Assembly: GCA_022710775.1 (NCBI GenBank)
Contig: JAKLGH010000001.1
Location: 201,746-265,745 of the forward strand
From: Patescibacteria group bacterium
GTDB taxonomy: Bacteria; Patescibacteriota; Minisyncoccia; Minisyncoccales; UBA5738
Direction of reading: 5' to 3'
Length of the DNA: 64,000 nucleotides
How positions within the stretch are numbered: the stretch's first letter is position 1; every line of letters starts with the position of its first letter. The notes under the pieces are model-generated. The model was not told the DNA's origin. It searched no databases and worked only from the letters and a program-made list of their open reading frames with translations. A program made the position numbers and the translations under genes. Shown piece by piece: positions 2,149 to 63,915 of the stretch.

Positions 2149-2177
2149 ATTATAGCATAAAATACTAATTATGTCAA
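2149..2177 (-). promoter_or_regulatory. sigma70-type promoter (TTGACA-17-TGcTATAAT)
   Basis: Reverse complement reads TTGACA (2177-2172), 17-nt spacer, TGC then TATAAT (2154-2149). Confidence 0.6.
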
Positions 2178-7116: not shown

Positions 7117-7225
7117 TTTTCGACTTAAAGTAATAGCTTTATTCTATCCCTTGGAATAATAAGCCGCAAGTAAAAAAAGCTGCTGGGTTGGAGCAGCTGT
7201 TTTCCGCCGTTAAGGTTATTTTTTG

Positions 7226-7765
7226 CTAATCCGGCACTTCGGCAGCGCCGGTGTTTTTGCAGGGGCAATCCGGATCCCCGAATCCTTTCATTCCGGGGCC
7301 GGGACGCCCGCCCATGCCGCGTCCGCCGATCATCATATATCCTTTTGGAATATTGTTGTCTTCTGCCCATTGCTTCAAATCAGCCATTTGAGCTTTAACC
7401 GCAGTGCGGATTTCTTCTTTTGTCTTTCCCCGCATTTCTGTCCTTAACTTTTCCATATCTGACTGCTTGGCCCTGATTCCGTCCGCTTGCGCCTGGGTAA
7501 GTTTTCCGGCGGCAACCGCGTTGTTCAGGCGGTCCTCGAAATTTTTCACCCTCTGGGCCGCCATTCTGGTTTTTTGCTCGTCAAAAACTGATTGCACCTC
7601 TTGTGCGTCAAGATTGAATTTTGAAGCAATTGCCGTTGCTAGCCGGTTGATCGGATTTGTTTTTTCCGCTGTTTCCGTTGCGGCATAAGCCGAACCGATT
7701 CCTGCGGCTGACAGCGCCAATACGGCTGACAGCGCCATAATTGTCTGTTTTTTGGTAATTGTCAT
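7226..7765 (-). CDS. secreted coiled-coil protein
   Basis: Signal-like MTITKKQTIMALSAVLALSAAGIGSAYA from ATG 7765. Gly-rich C-terminus. Terminator hairpin at 7178-7205. Confidence 0.55.
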   Translation of the reverse strand: MTITKKQTIMALSAVLALSAAGIGSAYAATETAEKTNPINRLATAIASKFNLDAQEVQSVFDEQKTRMAAQRVKNFEDRLNNAVAAGKLTQAQADGIRAKQSDMEKLRTEMRGKTKEEIRTAVKAQMADLKQWAEDNNIPKGYMMIGGRGMGGRPGPGMKGFGDPDCPCKNTGAAEVPD

Positions 7766-7967
7766 ATATTTTACTGCTATTATCGCCATCGGGCCTGCGC
7801 CGCCTGATGGCTTTTGGAAAAACCCGGGTATCCATAACATTACTACAAGCCGGAAACTATATTATTTCATCAAGCATCCGCCTGAAATCAGCCAACAAAA
7901 AAATTCTCGCTAAGAACCAAAAAGGGCGCGGTTTTTCGATCGCGCCCTTGCTTTACTTAAAAACCGG

Positions 7968-8678
7968 TTAGTTGCCCGCCGGACAGTTTTGTTTTTTACA
8001 CATTTCCCTCGTTTCCGCCGAAGGGAACATTTCGCAGGCTTCGCACGCGTTTGCCGGAGCGTTTTTCAGCATATTATTGGTCTGGTTCGTAAAATCATCA
8101 AACTCGATACCGGCGGGAAGATCGAATAGCGAAGCGTTAACCGTCCAAGGCAAACAGGAGAATTTCATTGATCTTTCCATATTAATGCCCCCGTTTTCTT
8201 TAAATGCCGGCTGGTCAGACTGTTTGGGCTTATCCAATTCCGTAAATTTTATCTTCATTCCGGTTACCGGAACCGACATTCCCGGCACATTGCTTTCGTT
8301 CCAAATATATTCCCAATCGTCTTTTACGATCACAAAAACCTTATTCTCGTTTCCGGCGATCTTCGCGTTTACTTCCATTCTCATGTTTTTACCGTCCGAA
8401 TATATCGTTTGGCTTTGCTTTTCCCCCTCTAAATCATATTCGGCCGTGCATTTCATCGCCGTTTTTTTGGTTAACAGGTCTTTAATGGTTCCGCTAAACG
8501 AATTTTCCCCGTTTTTCTCATTTTTACCGCCTCCGTTCTCATTTTCGCCTTTAACGTTCAAATCGCCCTTGAGATTGGCAGAATCGTTTTCCCGGTCATC
8601 GTTATTACTCATGAACACCAGCCAAATACCAGCGATCACGACTATACCGGCGATTGTTGCGATTAATACTTTTTTCAT
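7968..8678 (-). CDS. membrane-anchored exported protein (family with 14678..15259)
   Basis: N-terminal TM KKVLIATIAGIVVIAGIWLVF. Shares blocks with 14678..15259: IKDLL..KC.AEY and VFVIVKDDWEYIWNE versus VHVIIDNGIEYVWPE. Confidence 0.65.
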   Translation of the reverse strand: MKKVLIATIAGIVVIAGIWLVFMSNNDDRENDSANLKGDLNVKGENENGGGKNEKNGENSFSGTIKDLLTKKTAMKCTAEYDLEGEKQSQTIYSDGKNMRMEVNAKIAGNENKVFVIVKDDWEYIWNESNVPGMSVPVTGMKIKFTELDKPKQSDQPAFKENGGINMERSMKFSCLPWTVNASLFDLPAGIEFDDFTNQTNNMLKNAPANACEACEMFPSAETREMCKKQNCPAGN

Positions 8679-8919
8679 TTTTTTATTTATTTTTAAACTT
8701 AATTTATTTTATCATTTCCTGCCTTAACCGCAAACTTTCTAAAATTTTTTAATGATTAAGTTTAAAGGTCAAAATATTTTTTTCCATTTAAAACGCCTAA
8801 TTCCCCTTTCTTTCCATTCCTATGAAAACGGGAACCAAACCATAGTCTTTCTTCTTAGCCTTGCCTCTATTAAAAAAAATAAAACCCCTATTTGGGGTTT
8901 GTTTTTTCTCAACTGGCGT

Positions 8920-9474
8920 CTATTGCATTGTTTCCTTAACCATATCTTGCCAGGCCTTTTCATCGTTAATATTCCATTTAAGGCGGTTAATGATCAGCGA
9001 TTCATTGACGATAAAATGAATATTTTGCCCTTGATTTAAGCCTAAGTCTTTGAATCTTGCCCTCAATTCACCGTTATAAGGGCTGGGAACTTCACTATCG
9101 CCGATGATATGGCATATTGCTTCGAAAGCCGGATCCGGCAAGGTTTCGTGTTCGCGTGCCCGGCAACCCAAAGCATCGTCAACCATAAGAACAAGCTCTG
9201 AAAGCGTCATACCTTTTTCGCCCGGCAGCGTTTCTTTCGTTGTCGATGAGACGATGAAATTATGCTTTGCCCACAATCCGGTTCCCAAGCCGCCGCTGGC
9301 CTTTAAAATGTTTTCTTCGCTGGCGATAAGATTTGTTTGCTGTTCCTTGGTTAATTTTAAAAGATTTAAACGCCGGAATAGTTCTTTTTTGTTCGCGGTT
9401 CCGCCCAAAAAGATCAGTTCCGAAGTCAAGCGATCGTCGGGATCGTTTTCCTTTACAATCAAAGATTGCATCAT
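8920..9474 (-). CDS. hypothetical protein
   Basis: ORF in track; no recognisable motif. Confidence 0.5.
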   Translation of the reverse strand: MMQSLIVKENDPDDRLTSELIFLGGTANKKELFRRLNLLKLTKEQQTNLIASEENILKASGGLGTGLWAKHNFIVSSTTKETLPGEKGMTLSELVLMVDDALGCRAREHETLPDPAFEAICHIIGDSEVPSPYNGELRARFKDLGLNQGQNIHFIVNESLIINRLKWNINDEKAWQDMVKETMQ

Positions 9475-9597
9475 TTAACCTCCGAAAACGATGCTAGCAT
9501 GTCAAAAGCGATCTTTCAAGCTCTTTTGGCAAAAAATTAATTAAACGGCTTGGCCGGCGTGGTAAAAAAAATGAGACTGGTAATTTTATCTCATTTC

Positions 9598-9807
9598 TCA
9601 TTGGTAGCCGTCGATAACTTCATTTATGATGTGAAATTTCACGGCGGCTTCCTGAAGCATTGCTATCATCTGGAACGCGGCCTGCGCCGCGTCCTCGGGC
9701 TTCAGGACGATTTTAGTTTGCTCGCTTCCTCTTTCCGCCAAAATTACCATATTGGGCCCTTCCATTGCGAACCCAATCCGGTCGGCCGTATCTTGCATTT
9801 TCTTCAC
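9598..9807 (-). CDS. hypothetical small protein
   Basis: AGGGAGGTGAAGAAA RBS before ATG 9807. Consensus promoter TTGACA 9851-9846, 17 nt, TGT-TATAAT 9828-9823. Confidence 0.55.
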   Translation of the reverse strand: MKKMQDTADRIGFAMEGPNMVILAERGSEQTKIVLKPEDAAQAAFQMIAMLQEAAVKFHIINEVIDGYQ

Positions 9808-9917
9808 CTCCCTTATTTTTTTATTATAACATCTTTGTTTTTATTTGTCAAAAAAAAATGGGTAATGCGCAAGAACATAGGCCGCGTAACAAAAAAACGC
9901 CTTAGGCGGAAAAGCTG

Positions 9918-10458
9918 AAAGATAATACCCTGGATCGCGCTGGATACCAGGGTCTGTTTGTTTAAGCGGCCAAACTTTGGCATCGCGGAGCAGTCAATTC
10001 ATCGCCAGTAGGGCTTTTTGTTCCCTCACTCAAAGAAATCACAAGCGAATCGAATGTCCATGTTTCGGGGCTTCATTCGCCGCATACCATATCGTTGCGC
10101 CACATCGTTTGGTGTACTCAATGGCATCTCAGCCCCATCCTTGTCGCTTCTCGCAAAGCACATCGTTTTGGCGTTATCCGCAACTTTCAAAGACTTTCCC
10201 GCAGGCCAGAAATGCCGCCCGGCCTATCTGGTGTGTTTCGTGTCCGGAGTATCCCTTTGGGGGACTTCTATCGTCCAATACCGGCAGGTTTTAAAAGCTG
10301 CCAAACCGGGATTGCGACATCTTCTTCCCTTGTTATCAATGACACCAGCGATTATCGGTTGCTAGGATTAAATCATCCCAACCTACGGTTCCGTTTTTGC
10401 CGCTTTTTCCTTTTTAACGGGCTAGGAAAAGAGTTTACGTTCCCACTCCCTCTCTTCC
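9918..10458 (-). ncRNA. unclassified ~540-nt non-coding RNA (candidate)
   Basis: Bounded by a perfect promoter (10465-10493) and a hairpin/U-tract terminator (9927-9953). Stops in all minus frames. Three overlapping open frames on the plus strand with no RBS. Predicted 5' stem GGAAGAGAG/CUCUUUUCC. Confidence 0.5.
9927..9953 (-). terminator. intrinsic terminator of the candidate ncRNA
   Basis: Minus strand ACCCUGG-UAUCCAGCGCGAU-CCAGGGU followed by AUUAUCUUUCAGCUUUU. Confidence 0.5.
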
Positions 10459-10464
10459 ATTATT

Positions 10465-10493
10465 ATTATAACATAAAATAAGCAAAATGTCAA
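10465..10493 (-). promoter_or_regulatory. consensus extended -10 promoter
   Basis: Reverse complement: TTGACA 10493-10488, 17-nt spacer, TGT, TATAAT 10470-10465. Confidence 0.65.
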
Positions 10494-10576
10494 TCAAAAG
10501 CGGCGCATAAAAACGGACGTTTTACCGTCCGTCGTTCTTCTAAATTTTGCTTTTAACCGGCCAGCCGCCTTTTGGT

Positions 10577-10861
10577 TTAAATATCGCAGCAAGGCGCTTC
10601 CAGCCTGTCGTCTACCAGCTTTAGATTATCGCCCCAAAATGCGGGACGATGATTCGGACAGCCTTCGTTTGGACATTCCGGCAAGGGGAATTCTTTTACT
10701 TCGCCATTCCCAACATGCTTTCCGCCGAATGCCGTAAAACCGTCGTGGACGGAAAAAAACGTTTTTCTGGCCATGATGGTTTGGCCGCAACGTTTGCACC
10801 GGTATTCGTCCCTGCCGCGGGCCGCTTCCTGCTTTAACCAATGCTGAACAAGATCTTGCAT
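10577..10861 (-). CDS. zinc-ribbon-like small protein
   Basis: CKRCGQ ... ECPNEGCPNH cysteine pairs. Terminator hairpin at 10511-10535. Confidence 0.5.
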   Translation of the reverse strand: MQDLVQHWLKQEAARGRDEYRCKRCGQTIMARKTFFSVHDGFTAFGGKHVGNGEVKEFPLPECPNEGCPNHRPAFWGDNLKLVDDRLEAPCCDI

Positions 10862-11005
10862 CTCGGCATACCATTTTTCCCAGTCTTTTTTAAGCCTTTA
10901 CTTCCTCCGCTTGTGCCGGGAAAAATATAACTTTAAAATTGCCTTAAATCAAGGTTATTGAAAAACAAAGCCTTTGGTTTCCCAAAGGCGTTCAATAATA
11001 CGGCG

Positions 11006-11323
11006 TTAATCAAGGTAGGCAAATCTTTTCTTTTGCCAATTTCCGGTTTTCAGATCGGCAAGGACGGCCCGCAAAAATCCGGCAAAATCAGTCCCTTTGT
11101 AAGAAGCGGTCCATACGCTGCCGCCGTGGGCAGTAATTTCAAAAAACCAAAATACCGGGCCGCCGGCATAACCAATTCTCCATTTCAGATCTTTGCATGA
11201 AGCTGGTTGGCCAACAGGCTGGAAACATTGATGGCAATCACGTTTTCTCACGTTTTGACCAATATATGCGGCAATCTGTTCCATTATTAGCATTATCTCG
11301 TTCGGTTCTTTCGCAATTTCCAT
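11006..11323 (-). CDS. hypothetical protein
   Basis: ORF in track; GGTGGAG RBS-like sequence before the ATG. Confidence 0.5.
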   Translation of the reverse strand: MEIAKEPNEIMLIMEQIAAYIGQNVRKRDCHQCFQPVGQPASCKDLKWRIGYAGGPVFWFFEITAHGGSVWTASYKGTDFAGFLRAVLADLKTGNWQKKRFAYLD

Positions 11324-11427
11324 CTACTCCACCTCTTAAGAACTTTTTTTCTAATATCATAAAAAAACTATAATATCAATTAAGAAATCGCGGGAAAACT
11401 CCATAAAAAACTTTTTGGCCAACTGCG

Positions 11428-11793
11428 TCAAGCTATCTTAGCCCAAGCTATGACTTCATAAAGATCGTCTGGTGATTTTGGGAAAAAAACCGGCAAACCT
11501 ATGCTTTTGGCGTATTCTATTTCCGCGCGCGCACCGCTTGAGATTTCCCAGCCGGGTATCGCTAAAACCGCGTCGGCGGTCTTTCGCAAAAAAACCATAT
11601 CCAGCTCGCGATAGAAATTTTCGTCCGCGCTGGCTTTTGCCTCAAAATGCTCCGTGTGGTTGTGGGGACAGAAAAAGCCCATTCCCGCGTTCGCCAGAGC
11701 GATCTGGTATTTTTCGGCATGACGGATATTGTCGTAGATCATCGACCTGTCTCCATTGCCAAAATAGGGCCCCGCGATAAATATGATTTTCAT
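11428..11793 (-). CDS. DUF4406 / nucleoside 2-deoxyribosyltransferase-like protein
   Basis: MKIIFIAGPYFG ... LAIPGWEISSGARAEIEYAKSIGLPVFF matches the NDT-like pattern (IAGP, GW..S.G...E). Confidence 0.55.
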   Translation of the reverse strand: MKIIFIAGPYFGNGDRSMIYDNIRHAEKYQIALANAGMGFFCPHNHTEHFEAKASADENFYRELDMVFLRKTADAVLAIPGWEISSGARAEIEYAKSIGLPVFFPKSPDDLYEVIAWAKIA

Positions 11794-11964
11794 ATTGCCA
11801 TAATTAGCTTTTCTGGCTTAAGCGTTGATAGAATTTTATGCTTTCTTTTTAAACTTATTATGTTCCGGCCAAAATTACAATATCGCCGCTTTATCAATCG
11901 CAAAAAACGATTTTAAACAAAAAACTGGCCGTTTTCGGCCAGCTATAATGACGCCTTTTTTCAG

Positions 11965-12324
11965 CTATTTTCCCCGGTATTGGATCCGGTCGCCGCTCCT
12001 ATTGGCGGCAACCATCAAGGTTTCCAGCTTTTCAAGAAATCCAGCCGGAATTTCTCCCTCGACGTAGCCGCCGGACAAATATCCCACCTTTCTGGGCAGG
12101 CCTTTTGTCTGCGCGCGTTCTGATCCGATCACCGTTTGGTTCATCACGTCTTCAATGAACTCAAGCGGCGGCCTGAATCCGTGATCCGCGATATAATGCA
12201 GGATCATATCCGGCATTTCCCACGTGTTTCCCGAATCAAACCGCAAGGTCACGTCGCCACTGCTCAAATTACTGTACTGCCCAGTATCTCCGGGTTTACA
12301 ATACTCGCATACATGAAATCCCAT
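11965..12324 (-). CDS. hypothetical protein
   Basis: CAGGAGGCGCAACG RBS before ATG 12324. Promoter TTGACA-17-TATATA at 12345-12378. Confidence 0.55.
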   Translation of the reverse strand: MGFHVCEYCKPGDTGQYSNLSSGDVTLRFDSGNTWEMPDMILHYIADHGFRPPLEFIEDVMNQTVIGSERAQTKGLPRKVGYLSGGYVEGEIPAGFLEKLETLMVAANRSGDRIQYRGK

Positions 12325-12406
12325 CGTTGCGCCTCCTGATTTTTACTTTTATATATATGATATTATTCTTATTTTGTCAAAAAAAGCGGCCGGTTTGCTT
12401 CTTTCC

Positions 12407-12508
12407 GCTGTCTTCGCTTTTCTAGCTTTTCTCGCTGTTTTAGCTGTTTTAGCTTTTTTCGCTGTTCTTGCTGTTTTAGTTTTTCTCGCTGTTTTAGCTT
12501 GCCTGCTG
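12407..12508. repeat. 11 tandem copies of a degenerate 9-bp unit GCTKTTYTM
   Basis: Read directly: gctgtcttc gcttttcta gcttttctc gctgtttta gctgtttta gcttttttc gctgttctt gctgtttta gtttttctc gctgtttta gcttgcctg. Spans the stop codon of 12494..13948. Confidence 0.8.
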
Positions 12509-13948
12509 GCTTATCCTCACGCGCGGACGGAACCCGGCGTTTTGCACGGCTCGCTTCCAATCGGCGATCTTCATTAAGAAATTAAGCGAATTCACCTCCG
12601 ACAAGCGGCCAATCGTTTTTGATTTTTCCGAGGCCAGCCATAAACCGATCTTCTGCACGTCAAGCGTCTGGTTGGCCAGCTCGATCTGGCCGCGCCCGGC
12701 CTGTAAATATTTTGTCACGCCGATTGCCTGGTCCAAGGCATAGTTAACCGATTCGGGAGAACCGGTTTTTACAAAATAAAGCGTACCGTCTTTGAAAAGG
12801 TCGAGTTTGTTAACCCGGAACTTCTCGTTTATGGACGCAATACCCAGGCGGCAATCGGTGAAACCCGCTTTCACCTGGTTTTCGATAAATTCATCCTGGT
12901 CGCCTTTGAATTCCCCGTTGTCTTTTTCAATTGCCACCGTATCGGCTTCGCGGCGCAAAAAATTCAAAAACGATTGGTTGTAGCGGTACCATTTTCCATC
13001 GATCAGGCAAATCCGGTTTTCTTCATCCAAATAATCTATCATCGCTTTGAAATTCCTGGACCGTTCCCGCCCTTCCGGATCGTAAACCCTCACCTTTATA
13101 TCGTTTATCTGTTCAACCAGATTGACGCTTTGAGAATCTAAAAAATTCCGGAACGCGAATTTGTCCAGCATGCCTTTCTCCGACTGGCTGCCATATCCTC
13201 CCTGCATGTATATCCCGTACTGGCAATTATCGTTAACGATCAGCGATGCCTTATCCGATCCGGCCGTCAGAGCCTGCGCCAGCGCTCCGTCCAAATCTTT
13301 CAATTTGGCTGCGTCGCGGATTAAAACAACTTTAGGCAAACCCATTCGCGCCGGCTGATTTAATACTTCTTCCACTCTTTTAATGAACGGCGGAAGCTGA
13401 TCCGGAGCGATATCCAGGGAAAATTGAACGGCCGTGCCAAAATTAGCTTCCGCTCCCCATAAAGCCGGATCGATAGTCGCGGCCCGGATCATGTCCAGCG
13501 ATTCTCCGCTGTCAAATTCGATCCGGTTCCCCGCCTGGTAGGTAGAAGCTACCCGGTTGCGGCGCGACTTATAAAATTTGGAATTCTTGATTTTCACGTG
13601 ATCGCTGGCAATACGCTCGGCCATATTGATACCGAAATCCGGGTCGCAATAGTTCTTGATCTGGATGAAAGTCTTGCCCAAAGCCGCCGCGTAGCAAAAG
13701 GTATCGCTGTAAATGAAGAACGCCGCGCAGTGAACCACGTTCTTGGGCGGTTCCACGCCCTCAAAAAAATCTTTATAGGTTTTCGTCCACCATATATCAC
13801 TGCCTTCCGGTTCCCGCGAATACATGAATTCCAGCACGCAATCTCCCGCTTCAACCTTCTTGGCCGATTCCAGCCCGGCAGCCCGTAATTTACCGACTAA
13901 TTCAAACCTTCGTTCCGGCATCAGCCGGTATAGATTATACTTTGCCAT
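12494..13948 (-). CDS. DUF6119 / TIGR04141-like sporadically distributed protein (tentative)
   Basis: About 485 aa from ATG 13948 (MAKYNLYRLMPE...). Length and N-terminal pattern recalled from the family; not verifiable here. Confidence 0.45.
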   Translation of the reverse strand: MAKYNLYRLMPERRFELVGKLRAAGLESAKKVEAGDCVLEFMYSREPEGSDIWWTKTYKDFFEGVEPPKNVVHCAAFFIYSDTFCYAAALGKTFIQIKNYCDPDFGINMAERIASDHVKIKNSKFYKSRRNRVASTYQAGNRIEFDSGESLDMIRAATIDPALWGAEANFGTAVQFSLDIAPDQLPPFIKRVEEVLNQPARMGLPKVVLIRDAAKLKDLDGALAQALTAGSDKASLIVNDNCQYGIYMQGGYGSQSEKGMLDKFAFRNFLDSQSVNLVEQINDIKVRVYDPEGRERSRNFKAMIDYLDEENRICLIDGKWYRYNQSFLNFLRREADTVAIEKDNGEFKGDQDEFIENQVKAGFTDCRLGIASINEKFRVNKLDLFKDGTLYFVKTGSPESVNYALDQAIGVTKYLQAGRGQIELANQTLDVQKIGLWLASEKSKTIGRLSEVNSLNFLMKIADWKRAVQNAGFRPRVRISQQAS

Positions 13949-14153
13949 ATAATATATTAATTGCCCTATAAAATCCCTTTTTAAGCGATATTTCCGCTTC
14001 AAAAAAAAGAAAAACGGGTTTACAACCCGTTTTCATTTTAAACTATTTCCTAAATCCAATCAAAACCGCCGGCAATCATTTGCTCAAAGGTTGCTGGCAG
14101 ACATAATCATAGTCTTATAACAAACAGCATAACACCTATCAATGATTTGTCTT

Positions 14154-45720: not shown

Positions 45721-46209
45721 TCAGCTTGTGTTATTAACTATGGCCATTGGCTGCATCACAAGCAATTTTCCAATGGTCATGCGGCCCTTTAGGTATTTCG
45801 CTTTCACCTCTTCATTTAGACCAAATTCTGGACTGAACAGGAAATCTTTTTCCGTTAAGCCGGTCCTTGCCAAAAACTGAAATGAATCTTTCGCGATGTC
45901 CTTTAATGTTGGTAGCAGTATATCTTTCAGTTTTGCCGTCATCATGCCTAGCAACGACCCAAGCTCCTTGTTGGGCATCGACTTTACAAGAGCCTCGATA
46001 ACTCCGTTGTCAAGAGTGTATTCGATAACTCTTACCTTGGCATCCGTAAAGCTGGATACGGTGAGAGGCTTATCGACCAAGTCCGATAAAATTTCCGGCA
46101 GTTTCTCCACTGTTGGCCTGATCACCTCAAGCATTGATCCGGGAAACTCATCCGCCCTTGGATCTTTCTCAAAGGCGCTCCATACAGCTTCTCTTGATAT
46201 TTCCGCCAT
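45721..46209 (-). CDS. hypothetical protein
   Basis: AAGGAGGCAGTGATAA RBS. Promoter TTGACA-16-TATCAT at about 46240-46270. Terminator CTCCATC..GATGGAG plus T7. Confidence 0.6.
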   Translation of the reverse strand: MAEISREAVWSAFEKDPRADEFPGSMLEVIRPTVEKLPEILSDLVDKPLTVSSFTDAKVRVIEYTLDNGVIEALVKSMPNKELGSLLGMMTAKLKDILLPTLKDIAKDSFQFLARTGLTEKDFLFSPEFGLNEEVKAKYLKGRMTIGKLLVMQPMAIVNNTS

Positions 46210-46267
46210 TTATCACTGCCTCCTTTTTTTGTTAACAAAAAAAATGATATCACATTACTCTATATTG

Positions 46268-46591
46268 TCAAATTAGAAAGCGGTCCGCTTTAAACCGCAA
46301 ATAGCGCGAAAAGACCCAGCCGGCAACATGGCAGAAATTTGTAGATCGCACCATAGAATTACAGAGTCCCGGTCTCTGGAACGCCGTTAATTTGGTTGTA
46401 GTCAGTTTATCTAATTTAGTATGTAAAACCCAATTACAATAAAATCTTAATGTTTTGTATCGATTAGATCCGTCTAAATCCAATATTTTTCGAATTCGAA
46501 CTAATAAATAAACCACTTCATTCCTTTGAGTAAGTTTCGATTTATTTTCTAAAAAAACTTTCAGATCGTTTATGAAATTGTTTTTATTCAT
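46268..46591 (-). pseudogene. 5' fragment of an AT-rich island gene fused to unrelated sequence
   Basis: The first ~70 codons are AT-rich and protein-like (MNKNNFINDLKVFLENKSKL...). The last ~35 codons lie in GC-richer DNA left of about 46380 and read as an arbitrary extension. Confidence 0.4.
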
Positions 46592-46599
46592 AAAGAAAT

Positions 46600-47706
46600 T
46601 TATTTCCCAGATTTAGTACGGTTATCTTGCCTGCATAACATTTGGCAATTCTCTGCGATTGTTTTTCCGCCTTCATGCCAAGGCGTTATGTGATCAGCTT
46701 CCATTTCTTCAATTTCCCATTTCTTTTTCTTATTTTCACCTTTGCAATGCGGACAAATTCCTTTTTGCCTCTCATACGCTTCCCGCTTCATCTTGTCGGT
46801 AAAAGCGCGGATATTCAAAAACTTTTCATTTCTAGTCAAGACATACTCATAAATGCCGGATTTTTTGGAAACATCTTCATCCTGCATCAATTCGGTTATT
46901 TCCTTTTCCAGTTTTTTTGAATCAAACTTTTTGTTTTTGAATTGGTTATACAATACGCCCCACGGTACATTACACATTTCCCTGCGATAATTTGGAAAAA
47001 CCTCTCGCACCCAAGAAATTACATCTTGAAAATAATCCCATAATTCATTAGCGTTTTTATTATGTTGGTGTTTAGCCATATAATCTTCAATTCTGCCATC
47101 ATTGATCCACGAAAGCGCAGTTTCTAAGTATTCTTGACGAACTGTATCCCCGCTAACTAATTGACCTCCGTCATTTGCAAGCAAATAAGCAACACAGTTT
47201 CTTTTACTAAATTTTAACTTGGCATCAGAAAGCCACTGACCAGTGTAAACAGCGTTGCGAATTTCTTGCGCATTTACTTTTTCCCCGTAAGTATTTATAA
47301 CCGTAAACCATTCAATTCGTTCCTTATCAGTTCCTTCGCAAAGATAAATCATCAGTTCGTAATCCAAAATTTTATCCTGTTCCTCTTTGGTCAAATTATG
47401 GAAAAAGCGGTTATTTAGAGAAAAATCGCCATTCACATATTGCCCAATGCTGATGGTGCGCTGTTGTCCGTCCAAAACTTCATAGCCACCATCTTCTCTA
47501 ATCATCCAATACATCACATTCAACGGAAAACCTTTTTTAACGGTTTCTATAACAGCATCACGTTGTTTTTCTTTGTACACAAATTCACGCTGATATTTTG
47601 GGCGAATATCAAGTTTTCCGCCATAAGCTACAACACCTTCTTCCGCGCTATCTTTGTAGCCATCAATAACTTTTCGGATTTTAATTTTTTGTAAATCTAT
47701 TTTCAT
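46600..47706 (-). CDS. DUF262 (ParB-like NTPase/nuclease) protein with C-terminal HNH endonuclease domain
   Basis: IRPKYQREFVY ... VLDGQQRTISI (DUF262 DGQQR motif). C-terminus CPHC...ADHITPWHEGGKT..NCQMLCRQDNRTK (HNH). Confidence 0.8.
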   Translation of the reverse strand: MKIDLQKIKIRKVIDGYKDSAEEGVVAYGGKLDIRPKYQREFVYKEKQRDAVIETVKKGFPLNVMYWMIREDGGYEVLDGQQRTISIGQYVNGDFSLNNRFFHNLTKEEQDKILDYELMIYLCEGTDKERIEWFTVINTYGEKVNAQEIRNAVYTGQWLSDAKLKFSKRNCVAYLLANDGGQLVSGDTVRQEYLETALSWINDGRIEDYMAKHQHNKNANELWDYFQDVISWVREVFPNYRREMCNVPWGVLYNQFKNKKFDSKKLEKEITELMQDEDVSKKSGIYEYVLTRNEKFLNIRAFTDKMKREAYERQKGICPHCKGENKKKKWEIEEMEADHITPWHEGGKTIAENCQMLCRQDNRTKSGK

Positions 47707-47707
47707 A

Positions 47708-48742
47708 TTATTTTTTCTTTCTTATTAATAAACGCCGAAACAATAATTTTCCATTAATAGTGAAGTCTTTGTCACCATTTTTACCTGTATATCTATCTAA
47801 CCCAATAATTTCAAACTGATCGGGGTTGTGTTTATCCAGAAAAGTTATTGGCACTCCCATCACCCCGTTGTAATCCCTCGGAATATCAATAAATCTGTTT
47901 ACATTGATGGCATTATAGTTATCATATTTTGAATATTCTTTTGTAGAGTACTTTTTATACAAAGTAAATTCAGTATGACGCTTGGAAACATAAAGATTTG
48001 TATACCAATTAACACTACCCATACTAAAATATTTCACACCATTTACAATTTTTTTTCTTGACTCTGTTGGAATGTCATAATCCATTGGGACTTGAAACCA
48101 TTTTGTGCCACCGTTATCGTACCCAAGCCAAACTTCATTGTCTTTTATTAAAGGAAAAAATTCTTTATAAATAATTGCTCCCTGTTGTCCCAAAATTAAA
48201 AATTTCTTTTTATACTCAATTAGCTGAGCTACATATTCTCGAAACAGAGAAAAGGGAGGGTTGGTTACGACGATGTCAGCTTGTTTAAGTAATTCTATAC
48301 ATTCATCACTTCTAAAATCACCATTACCTTTTAAAGGTGTGGCTGTGTTTTTATTATGTTTTAATAAATGCTCCACGTCATCAAGATTTATAGCGCCATC
48401 TTTGTCTGCATCCGGTACTTCTGTTATTTCTATTTTAAACGGCTCTTTTCCTGATGGCTTCAGCCCTTCTACTTCAAACAATGGCAACTGTCCGCCGACA
48501 ATCGGTGATTTTACATAACTTGTTGTGATGAGCCTTTTTAATTTAAGCGCATTAAAATTAGAAGCGAAGTATTTAAAAAAATTGCTCTCAAATGGATCGT
48601 CGCAATTACAATAAACCACCTTGTCCCGAAACTGTTCCTTATAATGTTTTAGTTCTTTTTCAATATCAACAAGCTGAGTATAAAACTCATCTTTTCCGGC
48701 ACCCTTCGCTCTGTGTAAATTTCTATTTAAAGATTTAGCCAT
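47708..48742 (-). CDS. EcoRI-family N6-adenine DNA methyltransferase
   Basis: KDEFYTQLVDIEKELKHYKEQFRDKVVYCNCDDP N-terminus typical of the family. Catalytic NPPF in IVVTNPPFSLF. Confidence 0.7.
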   Translation of the reverse strand: MAKSLNRNLHRAKGAGKDEFYTQLVDIEKELKHYKEQFRDKVVYCNCDDPFESNFFKYFASNFNALKLKRLITTSYVKSPIVGGQLPLFEVEGLKPSGKEPFKIEITEVPDADKDGAINLDDVEHLLKHNKNTATPLKGNGDFRSDECIELLKQADIVVTNPPFSLFREYVAQLIEYKKKFLILGQQGAIIYKEFFPLIKDNEVWLGYDNGGTKWFQVPMDYDIPTESRKKIVNGVKYFSMGSVNWYTNLYVSKRHTEFTLYKKYSTKEYSKYDNYNAINVNRFIDIPRDYNGVMGVPITFLDKHNPDQFEIIGLDRYTGKNGDKDFTINGKLLFRRLLIRKKK

Positions 48743-48746
48743 AAAA

Positions 48747-49079
48747 TTATCTTCCCTTTAAAATTTTATCTAAAATTGCTTGTATTCCATCGGCTAAATT
48801 TTTTGATATAACACAAAGATGGCCGAATATTCCTAATATAAAAATGAAAAATAAGACAATATCAATAGCATTCATACTATCACCATTTAGAAATGGCAAT
48901 CTGATAAATATAAAATAGTAACCAATCAATCCGGAAATAAAATAATTAAAAAAATCATTCCACATTTCAGAAAATTTTGATTGCCACTTTTTTCCAACAT
49001 ATTGATCGGAAATTGATTTATATTTTATTAAGCCAAGAATTAAGCTCGCTACGATTATAGTAATTAAAAAAATTGCCAT
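48747..49079 (-). CDS. small multi-pass membrane protein
   Basis: Three hydrophobic segments; 4-nt gap to the methylase gene. Confidence 0.55.
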   Translation of the reverse strand: MAIFLITIIVASLILGLIKYKSISDQYVGKKWQSKFSEMWNDFFNYFISGLIGYYFIFIRLPFLNGDSMNAIDIVLFFIFILGIFGHLCVISKNLADGIQAILDKILKGR

Positions 49080-49083
49080 ATTT

Positions 49084-49285
49084 TTATTTAAACAATTCCG
49101 CCACCGGCACGCCGAGGGCTTTAGCTATTTTTTCTAATGTATCCACAGTAGGATTCGGACTTTCTCCAGCTTCTATCTTTACAACGGTATTTAACGCCAA
49201 ATCAGCGTCTTTTGAGAGGCAATCTTGTGAAATTCCTTTTTTTGATTCGTAATTTGCTTATTTTTCGCCAACGAAATTTTTTCAC
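49084..49285 (-). pseudogene. XRE-family HTH regulator interrupted by a +1 A in an A7 run
   Basis: Frame 1 reads (GTG)KKFRWRKISKLRIKK. After the A7 tract (plus T7 at 49237-49243) the next frame reads GISQDCLSKDADLALNTVVKIEAGESPNPTVDTLEKIAKALGVPVAELFK. Together they form a canonical Cro/C1 HTH. Confidence 0.5.
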
Positions 49286-49340
49286 GTGGATGTTAATTTA
49301 CTTAATACAATGGTATCAAAAACAAATGAATTTTCCCAGC

Positions 49341-49363
49341 AAAAAAGCGGGTTTTACCCCGCT
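49341..49363 (-). terminator. orphaned terminator of the original tRNA-Asn locus
   Basis: Minus strand AGCGGG-GTAAAA-CCCGCT followed by TTTTTT, about 35 nt downstream of the displaced tRNA 3' fragment. Confidence 0.6.
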
Positions 49364-49395
49364 TCCTGCTGAAACTGGTTTGTATTCAACTTCTG

Positions 49396-49413
49396 GGCTC
49401 CGGTGGTAGGATT
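49396..49413. repeat. att-type direct repeat (copy of tRNA-Asn 3' end), distal junction
   Basis: GGCTCCGGTGGTAGGATT is identical to 63902-63919. Confidence 0.8.
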
Positions 49414-49457
49414 TGCTTCGGCTTCGCTCAGCATAAATGCTTCGGCTTCGCTCAGCA
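49414..49457. repeat. two 20-bp direct repeats TGCTTCGGCTTCGCTCAGCA (24-bp period)
   Basis: Copies at 49414-49433 and 49438-49457, starting immediately inside the att repeat. Confidence 0.8.
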
Positions 49458-49480
49458 CTAGCTCAATTCTTGCATTCTAC

Positions 49481-49762
49481 TCAACGAAGCGATTCGACAA
49501 TCTCGGGACAGGCGTTTATTCCAATGTTTCCATCGACCAGCATTTGCTTCTTTGCGTGATTCCAGCCTTTTATTTGTTTTTCCCTTTTCGCCGCCTCACT
49601 AACTGTTGAATATTTCTCACAATAAACGATCTCAACACAAAAGAACTTTCTTGTATAGAATGATTCTTTATTACGGTGTTCGTTTAATCTTTTTGCAAGG
49701 TCATTTGAAATCCCTACGTAAAAAGTTTTCTTGTCGCAAAGAAGTAAATATAAGTACCACAT
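49481..49762 (-). CDS. GIY-YIG nuclease family protein
   Basis: WYLYLLLCDKKTFYVGISNDLAKRLNEH ... REKQIKGW matches the GIY-(x10)-YVG, R and E pattern. Confidence 0.8.
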   Translation of the reverse strand: MWYLYLLLCDKKTFYVGISNDLAKRLNEHRNKESFYTRKFFCVEIVYCEKYSTVSEAAKREKQIKGWNHAKKQMLVDGNIGINACPEIVESLR

Positions 49763-49946
49763 ATTTCTAGGCTGCTCATGGAAGGGCTTGCCCTGAGCTT
49801 GCCGAAGGGCTCAGAGCCGTGCGTGAACTTAGAACCGTAATTATGAACGGCTGGCACTCCTACGAAATGGACGCGGCCGTCAAAATGCTCCGCCGGGAGT
49901 CGCCGTTCGATTGGATTGAATGATTCAGCAACACTGCAAAAGTGTC

Positions 49947-50459
49947 TTATTTCTGAAACAAATGTTTATTCTTAAAAATCAAATAGATCATACTTAATAT
50001 TAGAGCAATGCCAACCGGCGGAATGGCGTATAAAACCAAATTGGCAATGTTAAACAAAACAGAGATGCTAGTATTAAGAACTTTGAAAAGCCAGGGAACG
50101 AGAAAGGCATACGAAATCCACATTAAAAATATCCAGAGTATCGCCTTTATCGCATTATAGAGCTCCCACATGCCAAATGCCTTAACAACGATATCATGAA
50201 GCACTTTATAAAATTTGATCAGGTACAGAAAAAAACCAAGCGTGCAAAAAGTAAAAGCACTATAAAACACCCTGACGAAAATACTTGGCGCGGATAATGG
50301 GCTGATATTTTGCCATTGAAATTTAATACCAAAAGCAAAATGCCAGAGCAGAAGTACAAGAACTAAAATAATATAAGTTATTCCAGAACTTACTATCTCT
50401 TTTGTGTTTTTTATTATTACTTTTTTATACCAATCACTACTTTTCATTTTATTATTCAA
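49947..50459 (-). CDS. four-TM membrane protein, gene 4 of the unknown operon
   Basis: Four long hydrophobic segments; 4-nt overlap with the upstream gene. Confidence 0.6.
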   Translation of the reverse strand: MNNKMKSSDWYKKVIIKNTKEIVSSGITYIILVLVLLLWHFAFGIKFQWQNISPLSAPSIFVRVFYSAFTFCTLGFFLYLIKFYKVLHDIVVKAFGMWELYNAIKAILWIFLMWISYAFLVPWLFKVLNTSISVLFNIANLVLYAIPPVGIALILSMIYLIFKNKHLFQK

Positions 50460-51811
50460 TAACCCAGTTTAAATTTATCAAAAATTTCTAATTGTTTTAA
50501 AAAATCCTTATGCGAATCAGAACTATTACCCTCCTTAAGTTTTTTGCTTAGCACTGGCATTGTTTTAAGGTATCCGTCAAAACCTAACAAATTAAGGTAT
50601 TCATCCACAAAAATAATAAGTTTTTCAGCTGCCATCTTAACAAACCTATACGGCTCCAGAAAATACTCGTTATCTAATTTGTAATGCCCCCATTCGCCTA
50701 ATTTACTTCCGTTTTCTTTAGATAAGGCCACGATATGGTTAAAAAAATCTTGCGGAACTCTAATCATATTAAAATAGAAATTATCGTTTCTATTATCAAA
50801 ACGCAGCGCCTTAAGTCTTGCCCTGTGAATAATAAGGTCTCTAGGACTATACGTTAAATTGATCAAAGAGGAATTTTGGGAAAGGAAATCTTTAATTTTA
50901 CCGTTCTCTTGGTACAAGAGCTTCATGAAATCTTTTTGTCTATCCTTTCTTAATCCGATTCTTTCAAATTGATCAAATTTAATTTGATAGCGGTATTTGG
51001 ATATCCAAGCAAGTGAATCAAAAACCCCAGTGAATAGGGTGATTAGGTAATTAAAGTGGTAGATAGTAGCGTCCTGGGTATCATTATTAACACCGGAATA
51101 GTAATTTATACCTATCTCATCTATTGCTGTAAGCAGATCAATAATTCTGTCTCCAAGCGAAGCTGTAATATCCATTAAATCATCTCCCCGAGGAATATGC
51201 TTTTGCCCATAGACAATGATTGACCAAACTTTTTGGTAATTTTTAACTTTTGTCTTCAAAGAATAAAGATACCAAAGACCTCTATTAACGTAATAATTGG
51301 GAGCAATTAAAAATTTATTTTTATTTTTACAATATAAATCAATAAAAATTATCGCCTCTTCTGGGCTCAAGATACTTTGCGCTGGCAACTCCGGGAAGCC
51401 ATTCCTTGCCCAGTTTAGCCGGCTTAACAACTTTTTTCTCTCTGTAACTAAGATAACTTTTTTATCCTCTGACACCCCTAACAATGTCTTAAGAATAAAA
51501 GTTAAAATAAAGTCGTCATACTTGATATCAAGAGACTCGGCAATTATTTTTATGTCGGATATTTTATATCCGAACATGGTGCTTTCTTTGTAGCCATGTA
51601 ATTTGTCGCCTAATTTATCAATGACAATCCCGCTAATATCATTTTTGTCACTGAGAGACAATTGAACTACTGTATGCGTCTTTGAGCTGCCCAAAGAAAC
51701 AAACTCAAAAAGTTCATTATCAAAATAATTAAGCAGCCTCTTAGCGACATCAGATTTTAAAGAGTCTGAATCTAGTAAAATTCTTAGTGGCTTTTTGTAT
51801 TTATTATCCAT
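50456..51811 (-). CDS. hypothetical protein with HEPN-like Rx4H motif, gene 3 of the unknown operon
   Basis: 451 aa. C-terminal half has YSPRDLIIHRARL (R-x4-H). The N-terminus RILLDSDSL ... VILVTERKKL is faintly PIN-like. Both calls are tentative. Confidence 0.55.
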   Translation of the reverse strand: MDNKYKKPLRILLDSDSLKSDVAKRLLNYFDNELFEFVSLGSSKTHTVVQLSLSDKNDISGIVIDKLGDKLHGYKESTMFGYKISDIKIIAESLDIKYDDFILTFILKTLLGVSEDKKVILVTERKKLLSRLNWARNGFPELPAQSILSPEEAIIFIDLYCKNKNKFLIAPNYYVNRGLWYLYSLKTKVKNYQKVWSIIVYGQKHIPRGDDLMDITASLGDRIIDLLTAIDEIGINYYSGVNNDTQDATIYHFNYLITLFTGVFDSLAWISKYRYQIKFDQFERIGLRKDRQKDFMKLLYQENGKIKDFLSQNSSLINLTYSPRDLIIHRARLKALRFDNRNDNFYFNMIRVPQDFFNHIVALSKENGSKLGEWGHYKLDNEYFLEPYRFVKMAAEKLIIFVDEYLNLLGFDGYLKTMPVLSKKLKEGNSSDSHKDFLKQLEIFDKFKLGY

Positions 51812-51814
51812 ACC

Positions 51815-52918
51815 TTATGATTTTTTAATTATCTGCTCAACTATCTGGTCAAACGTCATAGTCCCATCACTGTAGTTCTTTAACGCTTCGTCTAACTCCG
51901 CATTGGAGAGGAAGCCATTGTAGACAAGCTTAGGAGCTAAAGCAAAACTGTTCTTTTTTGCGACTACAGCCAGCACCTGCTCATTAAATTCATGTACTAA
52001 ATAATCCCTAAAATCATTCAGATATTTTTTATAACGAATCACTGTATAAATATCATAATACTGAGTCATCTGGGGACCGTTCGTATCCATTAAATAATTA
52101 AAAATAGTTCTGACTTTTGCGCGCGCAATGTCATACTTACGCTTTTCACTTGCGTAAGTTGTATACCGCGCTCGTTCTAAGGGCAAATAATGACTCTCAA
52201 CCTCAACACCGCTTCGAGACTGATCAATACCAAACTGCCAAAACTTTTTAATAGGTCTTAAATATTTAAAACTCTGCGCGGTTGGTGATTTTTTGGCGAA
52301 AGGATATTGGCAATATATAACCTCGTCTTTTTCAAATTCAAACGAACGAGGCTTTTCTTTTTCTTCCCAATTTTTAAATCGTTTTTCTTTAAGATAAGTA
52401 AAAAGACTATATTTTTGGCTATAACCAATAATCTCACCTCGCTTACGTCTAACTTTCATCGTTTCATTTCGAAGATACTCAAAATCAACAGGAAAATGGT
52501 ACTTCTTATTTTTAATATCTATTTCGTCCCACTCAATCATGTAAAACTCGTCTCCCGTAATCAATAACTGCCAAGCAATATCCTCTAAGAAACCGCCCAC
52601 TGAATCCCCCTGGCCATATAAGTCATCCCTATAGAACGAATGCTCGTCAGTAAAATACCTCTCAAGGTCTTGCTTAAGGGCTGGGTCATCGCATTCAATA
52701 CCGAAATAATTTCTCTCATGCGTAACATAGCCAGGCCTATCAGGGACTGGCACATCCCTAAGTGGAAAAAGTGCATATCGAATTGCGTCAACTTCTATGC
52801 TTAACTCCATTCCATTTCTTGATGCCATTTCCAGTTGATCATATCCCTTAATGTACCCGAGTAATGGATCATCAAAAACATATCCTTTTTCTCTTTGTTT
52901 GTAAGGTCGTCGTCTCAT
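51815..52918 (-). CDS. hypothetical protein, gene 2 of the unknown operon
   Basis: 367 aa, soluble, no motif recognised; 3-nt gap to gene 3. Confidence 0.55.
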   Translation of the reverse strand: MRRRPYKQREKGYVFDDPLLGYIKGYDQLEMASRNGMELSIEVDAIRYALFPLRDVPVPDRPGYVTHERNYFGIECDDPALKQDLERYFTDEHSFYRDDLYGQGDSVGGFLEDIAWQLLITGDEFYMIEWDEIDIKNKKYHFPVDFEYLRNETMKVRRKRGEIIGYSQKYSLFTYLKEKRFKNWEEKEKPRSFEFEKDEVIYCQYPFAKKSPTAQSFKYLRPIKKFWQFGIDQSRSGVEVESHYLPLERARYTTYASEKRKYDIARAKVRTIFNYLMDTNGPQMTQYYDIYTVIRYKKYLNDFRDYLVHEFNEQVLAVVAKKNSFALAPKLVYNGFLSNAELDEALKNYSDGTMTFDQIVEQIIKKS

Positions 52919-62330: not shown

Positions 62331-63915
62331 TATGAACCAGGAAGTACAACCCAGACTCAAGTACTTCCTCTACGCTCGAAAATCTTCGGAACAGGAAGAC
62401 AGACAGGTCCTTTCAATCGATTCGCAAAAGAGCGAGCTGGAAGCGCTTGCAAAAAGAGAAAAGCTCCTCATCGTGGAGCGCCTGGAAGAATCATATTCGG
62501 CCAAAGCGCCGGGACGCGAAATTTTCAACGCGATGATCAAACGGATAGAGAAAGGCGAAGCCGAGGGCATCATCGCCTGGCACCCAAACCGCCTTTCCCG
62601 AAATTCCGTGGACACCGGCTACCTGGTTTATCTCATGGACCAGAACCGGCTTTTGGAAATCCACACGCCCGGCCAGACATTCAAAAGCACTCCCAATGAT
62701 AAATTTTTACTTAACCTACTTTGCAGTCAGGCCAAGCTGGAAAACGACAACAAAGGCATAGACGTTAAACGCGGACTAAGGCGTAAGGTAGAAATGGGAT
62801 GGCATCCCGGACCGGCGCCCGTAGGCTACAAAAATACGCCGGACAAAGAAAAAGGATTCCGCACCATTCGCAAAGACCCGCGCATGTTTCCGATTATCCG
62901 GAAAATGTTCGACATGCTTTTAAGCGGCGACTTTACCGCTCCGCGGGTGCATGAAATCGCGGTGCAAAAATGGGGACTGAAAAATTTGGCGCGTAGCGGC
63001 TACTACCGCCTGCTTTATAATCCCTTTTATTACGGCTGGTTCGAATGGCCCAGAGGCTCGGGCAACTGGCATAAAGGCAAGCACGAACCGATGATCACGC
63101 GCGACGAATACGACAGGGTTCAAAAAATGCTTGGCCACGGCAGTAAACCCAAACCGGAAACGCACACCTTCGCTTATACCGGCATGATCCGCTGTGGCGA
63201 GTGCGGCTGTATGGTAACGGCCGAAAACAAGATCAAGAAAAACAAAAACGGCAACGTCCATCACTACACGTATTATCACTGCACCAAACGCAAAGGCCCG
63301 TGCAGCCAGAAGTGCATCGAAGTTAACGAACTGGAAAAGCAAATCAAAAAGACGCTGGCCAGAGTCAGACCGCCGGAAGAATTCCACGGCTGGGCCATGA
63401 AGTGGCTGAGAAACGAAAACGAACGCGAGGCCGGCGACAGAAACGCCATACTTTCCAATCAACAGAAAAATTACGAGGCCTGCGTGAGAAAACTGGACGC
63501 TTTGATCGACATGAGAGCGTCGGGAGAAATCAGCGAAGAAGAATTCAAGAAAAAGAAATCGGAAATCGGCCAGGAAAAAATCAGACTGCACGAATTATTG
63601 AACGACACGGACAACCGCGTGGACAGCTGGCTGCAGACGGCCGACAACGTCTTGACCTTCGCCGGCGACGCCAATGAAGCGTTCACCGAAAGGGGTCAAC
63701 ACGCCCGAAAAGTGATTCTCTCCGCCTTAGGTTCGAACCTCATCTTAAAAGACAAAAACATAAGAATTGACACGGATTCCGCGCTTCTACCGATGATTCT
63801 TGTCTCATCCGGGTCAAATCGAAAAAACGGACGGTTAGAACCCGCCGAAACAGGCTCTAATAAAGAGAAAAGCCGAGCTTTTAACTCGGCAAATCCCATG
63901 TGGCTCCGGTGGTAG
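62323..63915 (+). CDS. large serine recombinase (integrase)
   Basis: Resolvase catalytic domain YARKSSEQEDRQVLSIDSQ ... GIIAWHPNRLSRN, recombinase domain, zinc ribbon CGECGC...YYHCTKRKGPC, coiled-coil tail. The last 14 nt lie inside the att repeat/tRNA. Confidence 0.9.
   Translation: MTNMNQEVQPRLKYFLYARKSSEQEDRQVLSIDSQKSELEALAKREKLLIVERLEESYSAKAPGREIFNAMIKRIEKGEAEGIIAWHPNRLSRNSVDTGYLVYLMDQNRLLEIHTPGQTFKSTPNDKFLLNLLCSQAKLENDNKGIDVKRGLRRKVEMGWHPGPAPVGYKNTPDKEKGFRTIRKDPRMFPIIRKMFDMLLSGDFTAPRVHEIAVQKWGLKNLARSGYYRLLYNPFYYGWFEWPRGSGNWHKGKHEPMITRDEYDRVQKMLGHGSKPKPETHTFAYTGMIRCGECGCMVTAENKIKKNKNGNVHHYTYYHCTKRKGPCSQKCIEVNELEKQIKKTLARVRPPEEFHGWAMKWLRNENEREAGDRNAILSNQQKNYEACVRKLDALIDMRASGEISEEEFKKKKSEIGQEKIRLHELLNDTDNRVDSWLQTADNVLTFAGDANEAFTERGQHARKVILSALGSNLILKDKNIRIDTDSALLPMILVSSGSNRKNGRLEPAETGSNKEKSRAFNSANPMWLRW

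Follow-up and report, generated by a model that had tools for sequence, protein, structure and literature searches.

A candidate gene for a long, lineage-restricted non-coding RNA outside the known RNA families in Candidatus Paceibacterota

Patescibacteria, or bacteria of the Candidate Phyla Radiation (CPR), have very small, gene-dense genomes. What, then, occupies a gap of 769 nt between two genes of such a bacterium? The gap in question lies in the 64-kb stretch of Patescibacteria DNA analysed here (contig JAKLGH010000001.1, hereafter the window), where it extends from 9808 to 10576 between two minus-strand genes, a 94-aa gene upstream (10577-10861) and a 69-aa gene downstream (9598-9807). 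The locus recurs, 100% identical, in four independent assemblies, including the NCBI metagenome-assembled genome GCA_035452865.1, labelled Candidatus Paceibacterota (CPR). The GenBank locus tags of the flanking genes, P5080_00195 and P5080_00200, are consecutive, from which we infer that no GenBank annotation lies between them. A preliminary description had read the gap as an orphan non-coding RNA (ncRNA) gene with its own promoter and terminator. As judged from the sequence comparisons given below, it most likely holds a previously unannotated, lineage-restricted gene candidate for a long ncRNA outside the known RNA families. That the unit is a functional ncRNA gene of one kind or another we consider probable. 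To the fuller reading, namely that it is an independent gene for an ncRNA of about 565 nt in Candidatus Paceibacterota, acting as a folded, trans-acting binding platform, we assign a probability of roughly 0.55.

That the gap lacks a coding sequence, as had been proposed, is borne out by stops in all minus-strand frames (16, 13 and 9 over the whole 769 nt), by gene calls that leave it empty in all 4+ assemblies, and by negative coding scores. Namely, a periodic Markov coding score trained on the window's long open reading frames (ORFs) is -3.4 for the best minus frame inside the unit, versus +5.7 +/- 2.9 for the window's true genes. Pfam gave no match to any of the six ORFs of the region, fifteen six-frame segments searched in concatenated form against 5.8 billion protein clusters gave none at E<=10, and blastn against phage and plasmid collections found no similar DNA. 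A phmmer search with the longest sense ORF (65 aa) against 1.8 billion representatives returned two borderline matches only, both of them weak scores of 24-27 bits added over internal repeats of repetitive proteins. An alternative genetic code was considered and rejected: TAA, TAG and TGA are mixed within each sense frame, so that recoding rescues no frame, and frames with UGA or UAG read-through score strongly negative.

What the gap does hold is a self-contained unit on the minus strand, at window 9891-10493. It begins with a sigma-70-type promoter (10465-10493, minus) that agrees with the consensus at 12/12 positions and has a TG in addition: the -35 hexamer TTGACA lies at 10493-10488, followed by a 17-nt spacer with TG at 10473-10472 and by TATAAT at 10470-10465, the extended -10 element TGTTATAAT covering 10473-10465. 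The perfect extended -10 promoter that had been seen pointing into the gap is therefore there as described. Perfect TTGACA-N16-18-TATAAT sites number three in the 64 kb, where 0.02 would be expected, and two of these flank the unit; the third, with a 17-nt spacing, is found at 2149-2177 (minus), upstream of a 184-aa ORF (1478-2032). On its 5' side the unit is bounded by the terminator of the upstream 94-aa gene (10513-10532, minus), a palindrome ACGGACG...CGTCCGT followed by TTTTTAT. On its 3' side the boundary is the perfect promoter of the downstream 69-aa gene (9823-9851, minus), which lies about 40 nt past a U7 run, is separate from the RNA and is conserved in three related contigs, L131, L127 and L135.

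The unit has one diverged homologue, on the Logan contigs L131 (16 kb) and L132 (nhmmer E=2.2e-99, window 10501..9882, i.e. from promoter to terminator), which was reached via the contigs of three diverged relatives (73-81% identity) of the downstream 69-aa gene. Given this relative, the unit is not strictly an orphan. The comparison also bears on the length of the RNA, for which about 540 nt had been proposed on the grounds that a hairpin at 9953-9927 with a U-rich tract closes the unit. This hairpin (T1, ACCCUGG...CCAGGGU, 9927-9953, minus) is real and its stems are identical in L131, but its tail is only moderately U-rich in the window and there is no U-tract after it in L131, and for this reason T1 is perhaps structural and not the terminator itself. 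The true U-tract, U7 at 9897-9891, stands about 30 nt further on, behind a small terminal hairpin, CGCC-UAA-GGCG (9908-9898), and the two together (9891-9908, minus) are the likely intrinsic terminator. Its equivalent in L131 is GGCGCCAAAAGCGTT+TTTT, and the homology between the lineages ends just past it. The unit is therefore about 565 nt long rather than 540. With the transcription start site placed at about 10458-10461 from the position of the -10 element, and the 3' end set at the U7 run, the predicted transcript of ~565 nt covers 9891-10458 (minus), is homologous from promoter to terminator, and is non-coding in both copies.

Is the unit under selection? In the alignment of the window copy with L131 (alignment A2; 440 matches, 130 mismatches and 17 gap columns), identity over the 570 ungapped columns is 77.2%, while 624 four-fold degenerate sites in the ten orthologous genes that flank it show 55.8%, and 5/6 of the other spacers compared between the two lineages are unalignable. 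Consequently, the unit evolves well below the neutral rate. Its differences cluster (index of dispersion 1.35 vs 0.72 under the null, P=0.004), blocks of 91-92% identity (10339-10403 and 10207-10265) alternating with blocks of 56-58%, which is the neutral level; such clumping argues against a recent transfer of the whole unit as the source of the similarity. In other words, purifying selection acts on the unit, module by module. What is more, L131 (8037-8065) has the same -35 hexamer, the same 17-nt spacing and the same TGTTATAAT but a diverged spacer sequence, as one would expect if the promoter works. As an observation in its own right, the only alignable one among the other spacers compared, that between the 105-aa and 94-aa genes (window 10862-11005, minus, and L131:6213-6322; 77% over 106 nt), suggests either a conserved regulatory region or co-transcription of both genes.

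The pattern of the substitutions is that of a non-coding element. The ten indels measure 4, 2, 1, 2, 1, 2, 1, 1, 2 and 1 nt, none of them a multiple of three; the mismatches show no 3-nt periodicity, the three phases having an even share of them within each block free of indels; and synonymous and non-synonymous changes stand at about 1:4 in all six frames. In the flanking genes, by contrast, third positions are 56% identical, and the mean for first and second positions is well over 80% (0.62-0.96 over the ten genes). No sense frame of either copy is free of stops. On the sense strand of L131 a single stretch of 112 codons does lack them; the gene callers leave it uncalled, and the window copy interrupts it by a 2-nt indel and several stops, with substitutions that are not codon-like. 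The only homologous region within reach lacks an intact conserved ORF, and the proposal of an ncRNA gene with its own promoter and terminator is supported. As far as sequence can tell, the unit is a selected non-coding element, and its reading as a decayed gene is rejected.

Three smaller features of the gap do not survive the comparison with L131. Open frames on the plus strand had been pointed out, and they are real; in particular, the 284 nt at 10010-10294 (plus) form the longest run free of stop triplets on either strand of the 64 kb, the next being 215 and 202 nt. They are hardly meaningful, however, since L131 has 6 stop triplets in 10010-10294, and we take the depletion to be a chance extreme, helped by the RNA strand, which is purine-rich, as are the coding strands nearby. 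An 11-nt repeat CAAACGAUGUG proves to be exact over 10 nt only (10101-10110 and 10159-10168), and it reads as chance rather than as signal, because the repeat is not conserved in L131 and a fast-evolving segment contains one of its copies. Finally, an RNase-P-like motif, GGGAAAGUCU, was considered and rejected as chance: it is located in the fastest-evolving segment and is altered in L131.

Turning to the fold that the RNA might adopt, the 5' end carries a terminal hairpin H1 (10425-10458, minus) with the 9-bp stem GGAAGAGAG/CUCUUUUCC (10458-10450/10433-10425). This stem, which had been found by hand folding, is indeed present and is conserved in L131 with one G.U -> A-U change, while the loop is variable, with a changed sequence and an insertion of 4 nt; the 150-column segment with H1 has a consensus-fold z of -3.95. 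Next comes conserved block 1 (10339-10403, minus, 91% identity). It contains the fully conserved hairpin H2 (10362-10381, UUGGGAU/AUCCUAG with the loop GAUUUA), the conserved AGCAACCGAUAAU, which the RNAalifold consensus predicts to be unpaired, and a 31-nt identical run, the longest of the alignment (P=0.014 vs permuted mismatches). The same consensus proposes a core junction domain (10228-10348, minus), in which a long-range helix H3 (10342-10348 with 10228-10234) would enclose H4 (10269-10319), H5 (10251-10265) and a 2-bp hairpin. Double changes are seen in H3 (U-A -> C-G) and in H5 (C-G -> U-A), and three one-sided changes in H4 are kept via G.U; taken alone, the domain has a consensus-fold z of -2.74 sense and -2.09 antisense. 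Conserved block 4 (10207-10265, minus, 92% identity; GGAUACUCCGRACACGAAACACRCCAGAUAGGCCGGGCRGCAUUUCUG) is followed by the fast-evolving segment (10137-10206, minus, 56% identity, about neutral), in which GGGAAAGUCU and a single copy of the 10-nt repeat are found. Towards the 3' end, hairpin H13 (10008-10029, minus), with a GUGAGGG/CCCUAC stem and the conserved 9-nt loop AACAAAAAG, has an 18-nt identical run and one U-A -> C-G double change in its stem. Long-range helices between 10212-10224 and 9968-9983 are predicted by the consensus as well, and the 3' hairpins complete it.

Taken as a whole, the RNAalifold consensus has an energy of -124.1 kcal/mol and a structure conservation index of 0.70, vs 0.53 +/- 0.04 under the null. 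Its z-score is -5.1 sense and -3.2 antisense against a null that keeps the dinucleotide content and the conservation pattern, -4.1 sense vs -2.3 antisense under a class-preserving column shuffle, and -3.2 sense vs -1.2 antisense for the body without the terminal hairpins. The stronger signal on the sense strand fits the direction of the promoter. The consensus structure includes 8 double-changed and 16 one-sided (G.U) pairs, all of which are still paired; controls that favour these pairs are circular, in that the structure was derived from the same two sequences.

That said, a number of observations weigh against a gene for a folded, trans-acting RNA, and they should be stated together. Single-sequence folding is unremarkable, with z of -1.46 sense and -1.53 antisense, and ~0 in the body's 120-nt windows. 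The number of double-changed pairs, 8, shows no excess over the 7.1 +/- 2.3 that RNAalifold finds in shuffled alignments, isolated compensatory pairs within conserved sequence number 3 vs 0.96 expected (P about 0.09), and structures predicted from one copy are preserved in the other no better than chance would have it; covariation is without statistical power here because there are only two lineages. The intrinsic terminator of the unit is weak, with a stem of 4-5 bp. In the L127-L130 lineage the 67-aa gene, the counterpart of the 69-aa gene of the window, directly follows DUF6119, and the unit is absent at this syntenic site, i.e. it is dispensable. Scans of IMG/VR, of the GTDB species genomes and of JGI metagenome contigs, seeded with exact motifs or with back-translations taken from the conserved blocks, gave no further homologues and at most random matches; these negatives are weak, because exact seeds were required and the genome and metagenome collections missed even the window's own sequence. 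Altogether, the consensus models are suggestive only, and in their light a fold that is conserved in part is likely.

Would other explanations account for the same facts? One could imagine the remains of an orphan protein-gene cassette, decaying while its promoter and terminator survive. All neighbours are small orphan genes with their own promoter and terminator, a Shine-Dalgarno-like purine run follows the promoter just as it does in the next gene (repeat D1), the RNA strand resembles nearby coding strands in its purines, and there is the 112-codon stretch of L131 to consider. A decaying gene should, however, drift at or above the synonymous rate, while what is found is 77% identity against 56% at four-fold sites, with blocks at 91-92%. 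With all frames broken in both lineages, inactivation would have to precede their split, and yet the sequence has been conserved; the window copy breaks the 112-codon stretch by indel and stops, its substitutions are not those of codons, and there is neither a residual coding signal nor a protein homologue. We regard this explanation as extremely improbable. Nor do we give much credence to a messenger that encodes one or several tiny peptides within otherwise untranslated sequence. The candidates for such a peptide are a leaderless ORF of 12-16 codons at the predicted transcription start site, where the window copy opens with AUG and L131 with UUG, and a nine-codon ORF at 10291-10320 (minus), which encodes MSQSRFGSF in the window and MSQCRLGSY in L131. 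In both lineages the nine-codon ORF has the same length, with AUG and stop in place, and it follows a purine-rich GGGAAGAAG / GAGAAGAAG; it also sits inside the proposed helix H4 and is probably incidental. Its block is conserved at the nucleotide level anyway, 3/9 residues differ, and 1/4 of the changed codons are synonymous, while the leaderless ORF changes frame over conserved stem nucleotides after the 4-nt indel. A peptide of 9 aa would leave about 350 nt of other conserved sequence unexplained, and codon periodicity is found nowhere.

Two further possibilities leave the unit non-coding and differ in what it would do. It might act at the level of DNA or in cis, as a leader or read-through regulator of the 67/69-aa gene, or as protein-binding DNA. 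In favour of this, both lineages have the unit ahead of the 67-aa gene and in the same orientation, its weak terminator makes read-through plausible, and, as the one between the 105-aa and 94-aa genes illustrates, some regulatory spacers are conserved here too. Against it, the 67-aa gene has a conserved promoter of its own, is separated from the unit by another ~390 nt in L131, and is present in L127 and L135, where the unit is not; the signal for a consensus fold differs between the strands and favours the transcribed one; and 565 nt far exceed ordinary operator regions. Such a role is very unlikely in our view. Alternatively, the RNA could be functional mainly by base-pairing in trans with target mRNAs in the manner of RNAIII, rather than as a folded scaffold, its conserved unpaired segments serving as seeds. 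Conserved segments predicted to be unpaired do exist (namely, AGCAACCGAUAAU, the loop AACAAAAAG and the loop GAUUUA), the folding energy of the body is modest, and covariation is weak. On the other hand, there is no extended complementarity beyond chance elsewhere in the 64-kb window, nor, around the translation starts of ten neighbouring genes, any duplex that is strong in both lineages, and the conserved blocks, of about 60 nt each, are far longer than usual seeds. This mode of action we hold to be unlikely. Within an ncRNA gene, then, a folded and trans-acting platform is the reading we prefer, and for the scaffold mode specifically we would put the odds at no better than even.

How does this candidate ncRNA relate to RNAs already described? 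The preliminary description found no hallmarks of RNase P RNA, tmRNA, SRP RNA, 6S RNA or group I/II introns, and the searches agree. At gathering thresholds, the sole Rfam 15 match in the 64 kb is a tRNA, and the contigs L131, L127 and L001 have none; with permissive filters (E<=10, 1 kb around each copy) there are only chance-level matches to unrelated families; and ARAGORN finds in the window only tRNA-Asn (63901-63975), the sole tRNA and 53 kb off, and no tmRNA. Large bacterial ncRNAs of unknown function such as OLE, ROOL and GOLLD measure about 550-800 nt, and with these the unit shares its size class, the status of an untranslated unit of its own (with transcription being predicted here) and a place in accessory genome regions, along with conserved modules separated by variable segments and a function that cannot be deduced from sequence. 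Neither copy, however, matches the covariance models of these RNAs, or of HEARO and raiA, even at E<=10. Moreover, the unit is known from two closely related Paceibacterota lineages and those RNAs from hundreds of genomes; the evidence for its fold is energetic only, and there are no tRNA genes near it. In length the unit is comparable to OLE, ROOL and GOLLD, as had been noted, but nothing shows an 'ornate' RNA comparable to theirs.

Staphylococcus aureus RNAIII, 514 nt in length, offers a different comparison. It is likewise an independent transcript of ~500 nt (here predicted) with many hairpins, a 5' hairpin coming first; a possible tiny ORF and an accessory rather than housekeeping role are further points in common. 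On the other side, the two have no sequence relationship, no target was found in the window or among the neighbours, no quorum-sensing or regulatory locus adjoins the unit, and the mini-ORF of the unit has 9 codons and is probably incidental. RNase P RNA, tmRNA, SRP RNA and 6S RNA are stable non-coding RNAs with sigma-70 promoters as well, RNase P RNA and tmRNA being of similar length, while the unit has no Rfam or ARAGORN match. Because it is part of a mosaic accessory region and is missing from the sister lineage L127, it is not an essential housekeeping RNA. The omega-RNA/HEARO RNAs, retron msr-msd, DRT ncRNAs and ToxI are, in turn, similar in being non-coding units of hundreds of nt in variable islands among poorly characterised genes. 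They differ in their partners: by Pfam labels, no IscB/IsrB/TnpB or reverse transcriptase lies within +/-10 kb in either lineage, and, as concerns ToxI-like type III toxin-antitoxin systems, there are no tandem repeats in the unit and no endoribonuclease toxin gene within +/-10 kb. What the unit does display are the general features of a stand-alone bacterial ncRNA gene, namely promoter and terminator signals of its own, conservation above neutral and a non-coding pattern of substitution.

The genomic setting is that of an accessory region. Around the unit lie small genes, most of them orphans, every one with a promoter and a terminator to itself, and the closest recognisable genes encode a DUF6119 protein, DUF7919, a DUF4406/nucleoside-deoxyribosyltransferase-like protein and a Pif1-type helicase. 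A PADLOC scan of ten neighbours gave a Pif1/RecD-like helicase ~2.8 kb from the unit, a weak SIR2-like match (E=0.004) in a 204-aa protein, and no other match; PADLOC and PHROGs together, the latter covering a few neighbours of the unit, gave in addition only a nucleoside 2-deoxyribosyltransferase-like protein. No reverse transcriptase, TnpB/IscB or integrase was found near the unit, there are no paralogues of it within the 64-kb window, and it contains no tandem repeats. Among related lineages (window ~7200-14000; L131, L127 and L005/L006) gene order differs in mosaic fashion, single promoter-gene-terminator cassettes being the units, and in L127 the whole block from DUF7919 to the RNA is missing. 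The sister lineage does without the gene, which points to an accessory function. At some distance from the unit, window ~46000-53000 has a G+C content of 32-39% vs about 42-50% in most other parts, with several minus-strand genes, and may be horizontally acquired DNA.

In L131 the unit is again found upstream of the 67-aa gene and on the same strand, with the extra ~390 nt between them, and two extra paralogous genes (203 and 206 aa) separate the 94-aa homologue from the unit. Synteny was also followed via the upstream 94-aa gene, the only relative of which (77%, on the ~1-kb contigs L005/L006) has a helix-turn-helix/insertion-sequence-like gene next to it and not the RNA. The 66/69-aa protein encoded downstream (9598-9807, minus; homologues P0005-P0008) is 73-82% identical across four lineages. 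An AlphaFold2 (AF2) model of the 67-aa protein has a beta3-alpha fold, with three beta-strands and a long helix (pLDDT 82.5); the protein has no family match and no significant fold match in the PDB (best E=0.37), PUR-repeat-like matches (E about 1) not being significant. A role of this protein as an RNA binder was considered and rejected; the protein also occurs without the RNA. A separate observation concerns the ~390 nt themselves, here called 'X', a conserved non-coding stretch (L131:8649-9038 and L127:1560-1950) with 67.5% identity between lineages. It is placed between the terminator of the RNA and the promoter of the 67-aa gene in L131 and directly upstream of the 67-aa gene in L127, carries a CUCCGGCUUUAGCCGGG hairpin, and has been deleted in the window lineage, leaving a remnant at 9852-9890. 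'X' could be another ncRNA or a regulatory leader.

How, then, would the ncRNA gene work? On our reading, its consensus sigma-70-type promoter, probably constitutive and strong, would start transcription at about 10458, and the transcript would open with a protective 5' hairpin and stop at the small hairpin and U7 at about 9891. The product would function as RNA, with no translation. Selection would be directed at discrete modules, that is, the ~200-nt 5' core (10207-10403), H13 and the 3' hairpin, with segments evolving at the neutral rate between them, and the 5' core would probably fold as a junction closed by H3. Such a stable, folded and trans-acting RNA may provide a platform or scaffold for a protein or another ligand, in an accessory role.

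Bacterial ncRNAs longer than 500 nt are rare and make up roughly a dozen classes. To our knowledge none of this length has been described for this phylum, and our literature searches found none. In genomes as small and gene-dense as those of the CPR, ~565 nt of selected non-coding DNA with a consensus promoter in front imply a real function. A bolder proposal, which we put forward tentatively and consider rather doubtful, is that the unit is the founding member of a Patescibacteria/CPR-specific class of large structured RNAs, whose ~200-nt junction core would be catalytic or would bind a ligand or protein. If this were true, its standing would be comparable to that of OLE, ROOL and GOLLD, and it would be the first such RNA from ultra-small episymbiotic bacteria. 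If the fold is confirmed, there would be a new RNA architecture to study. Within the limit set by its narrow known distribution, the unit could give a handle on the accessory functions of uncultivated episymbionts.

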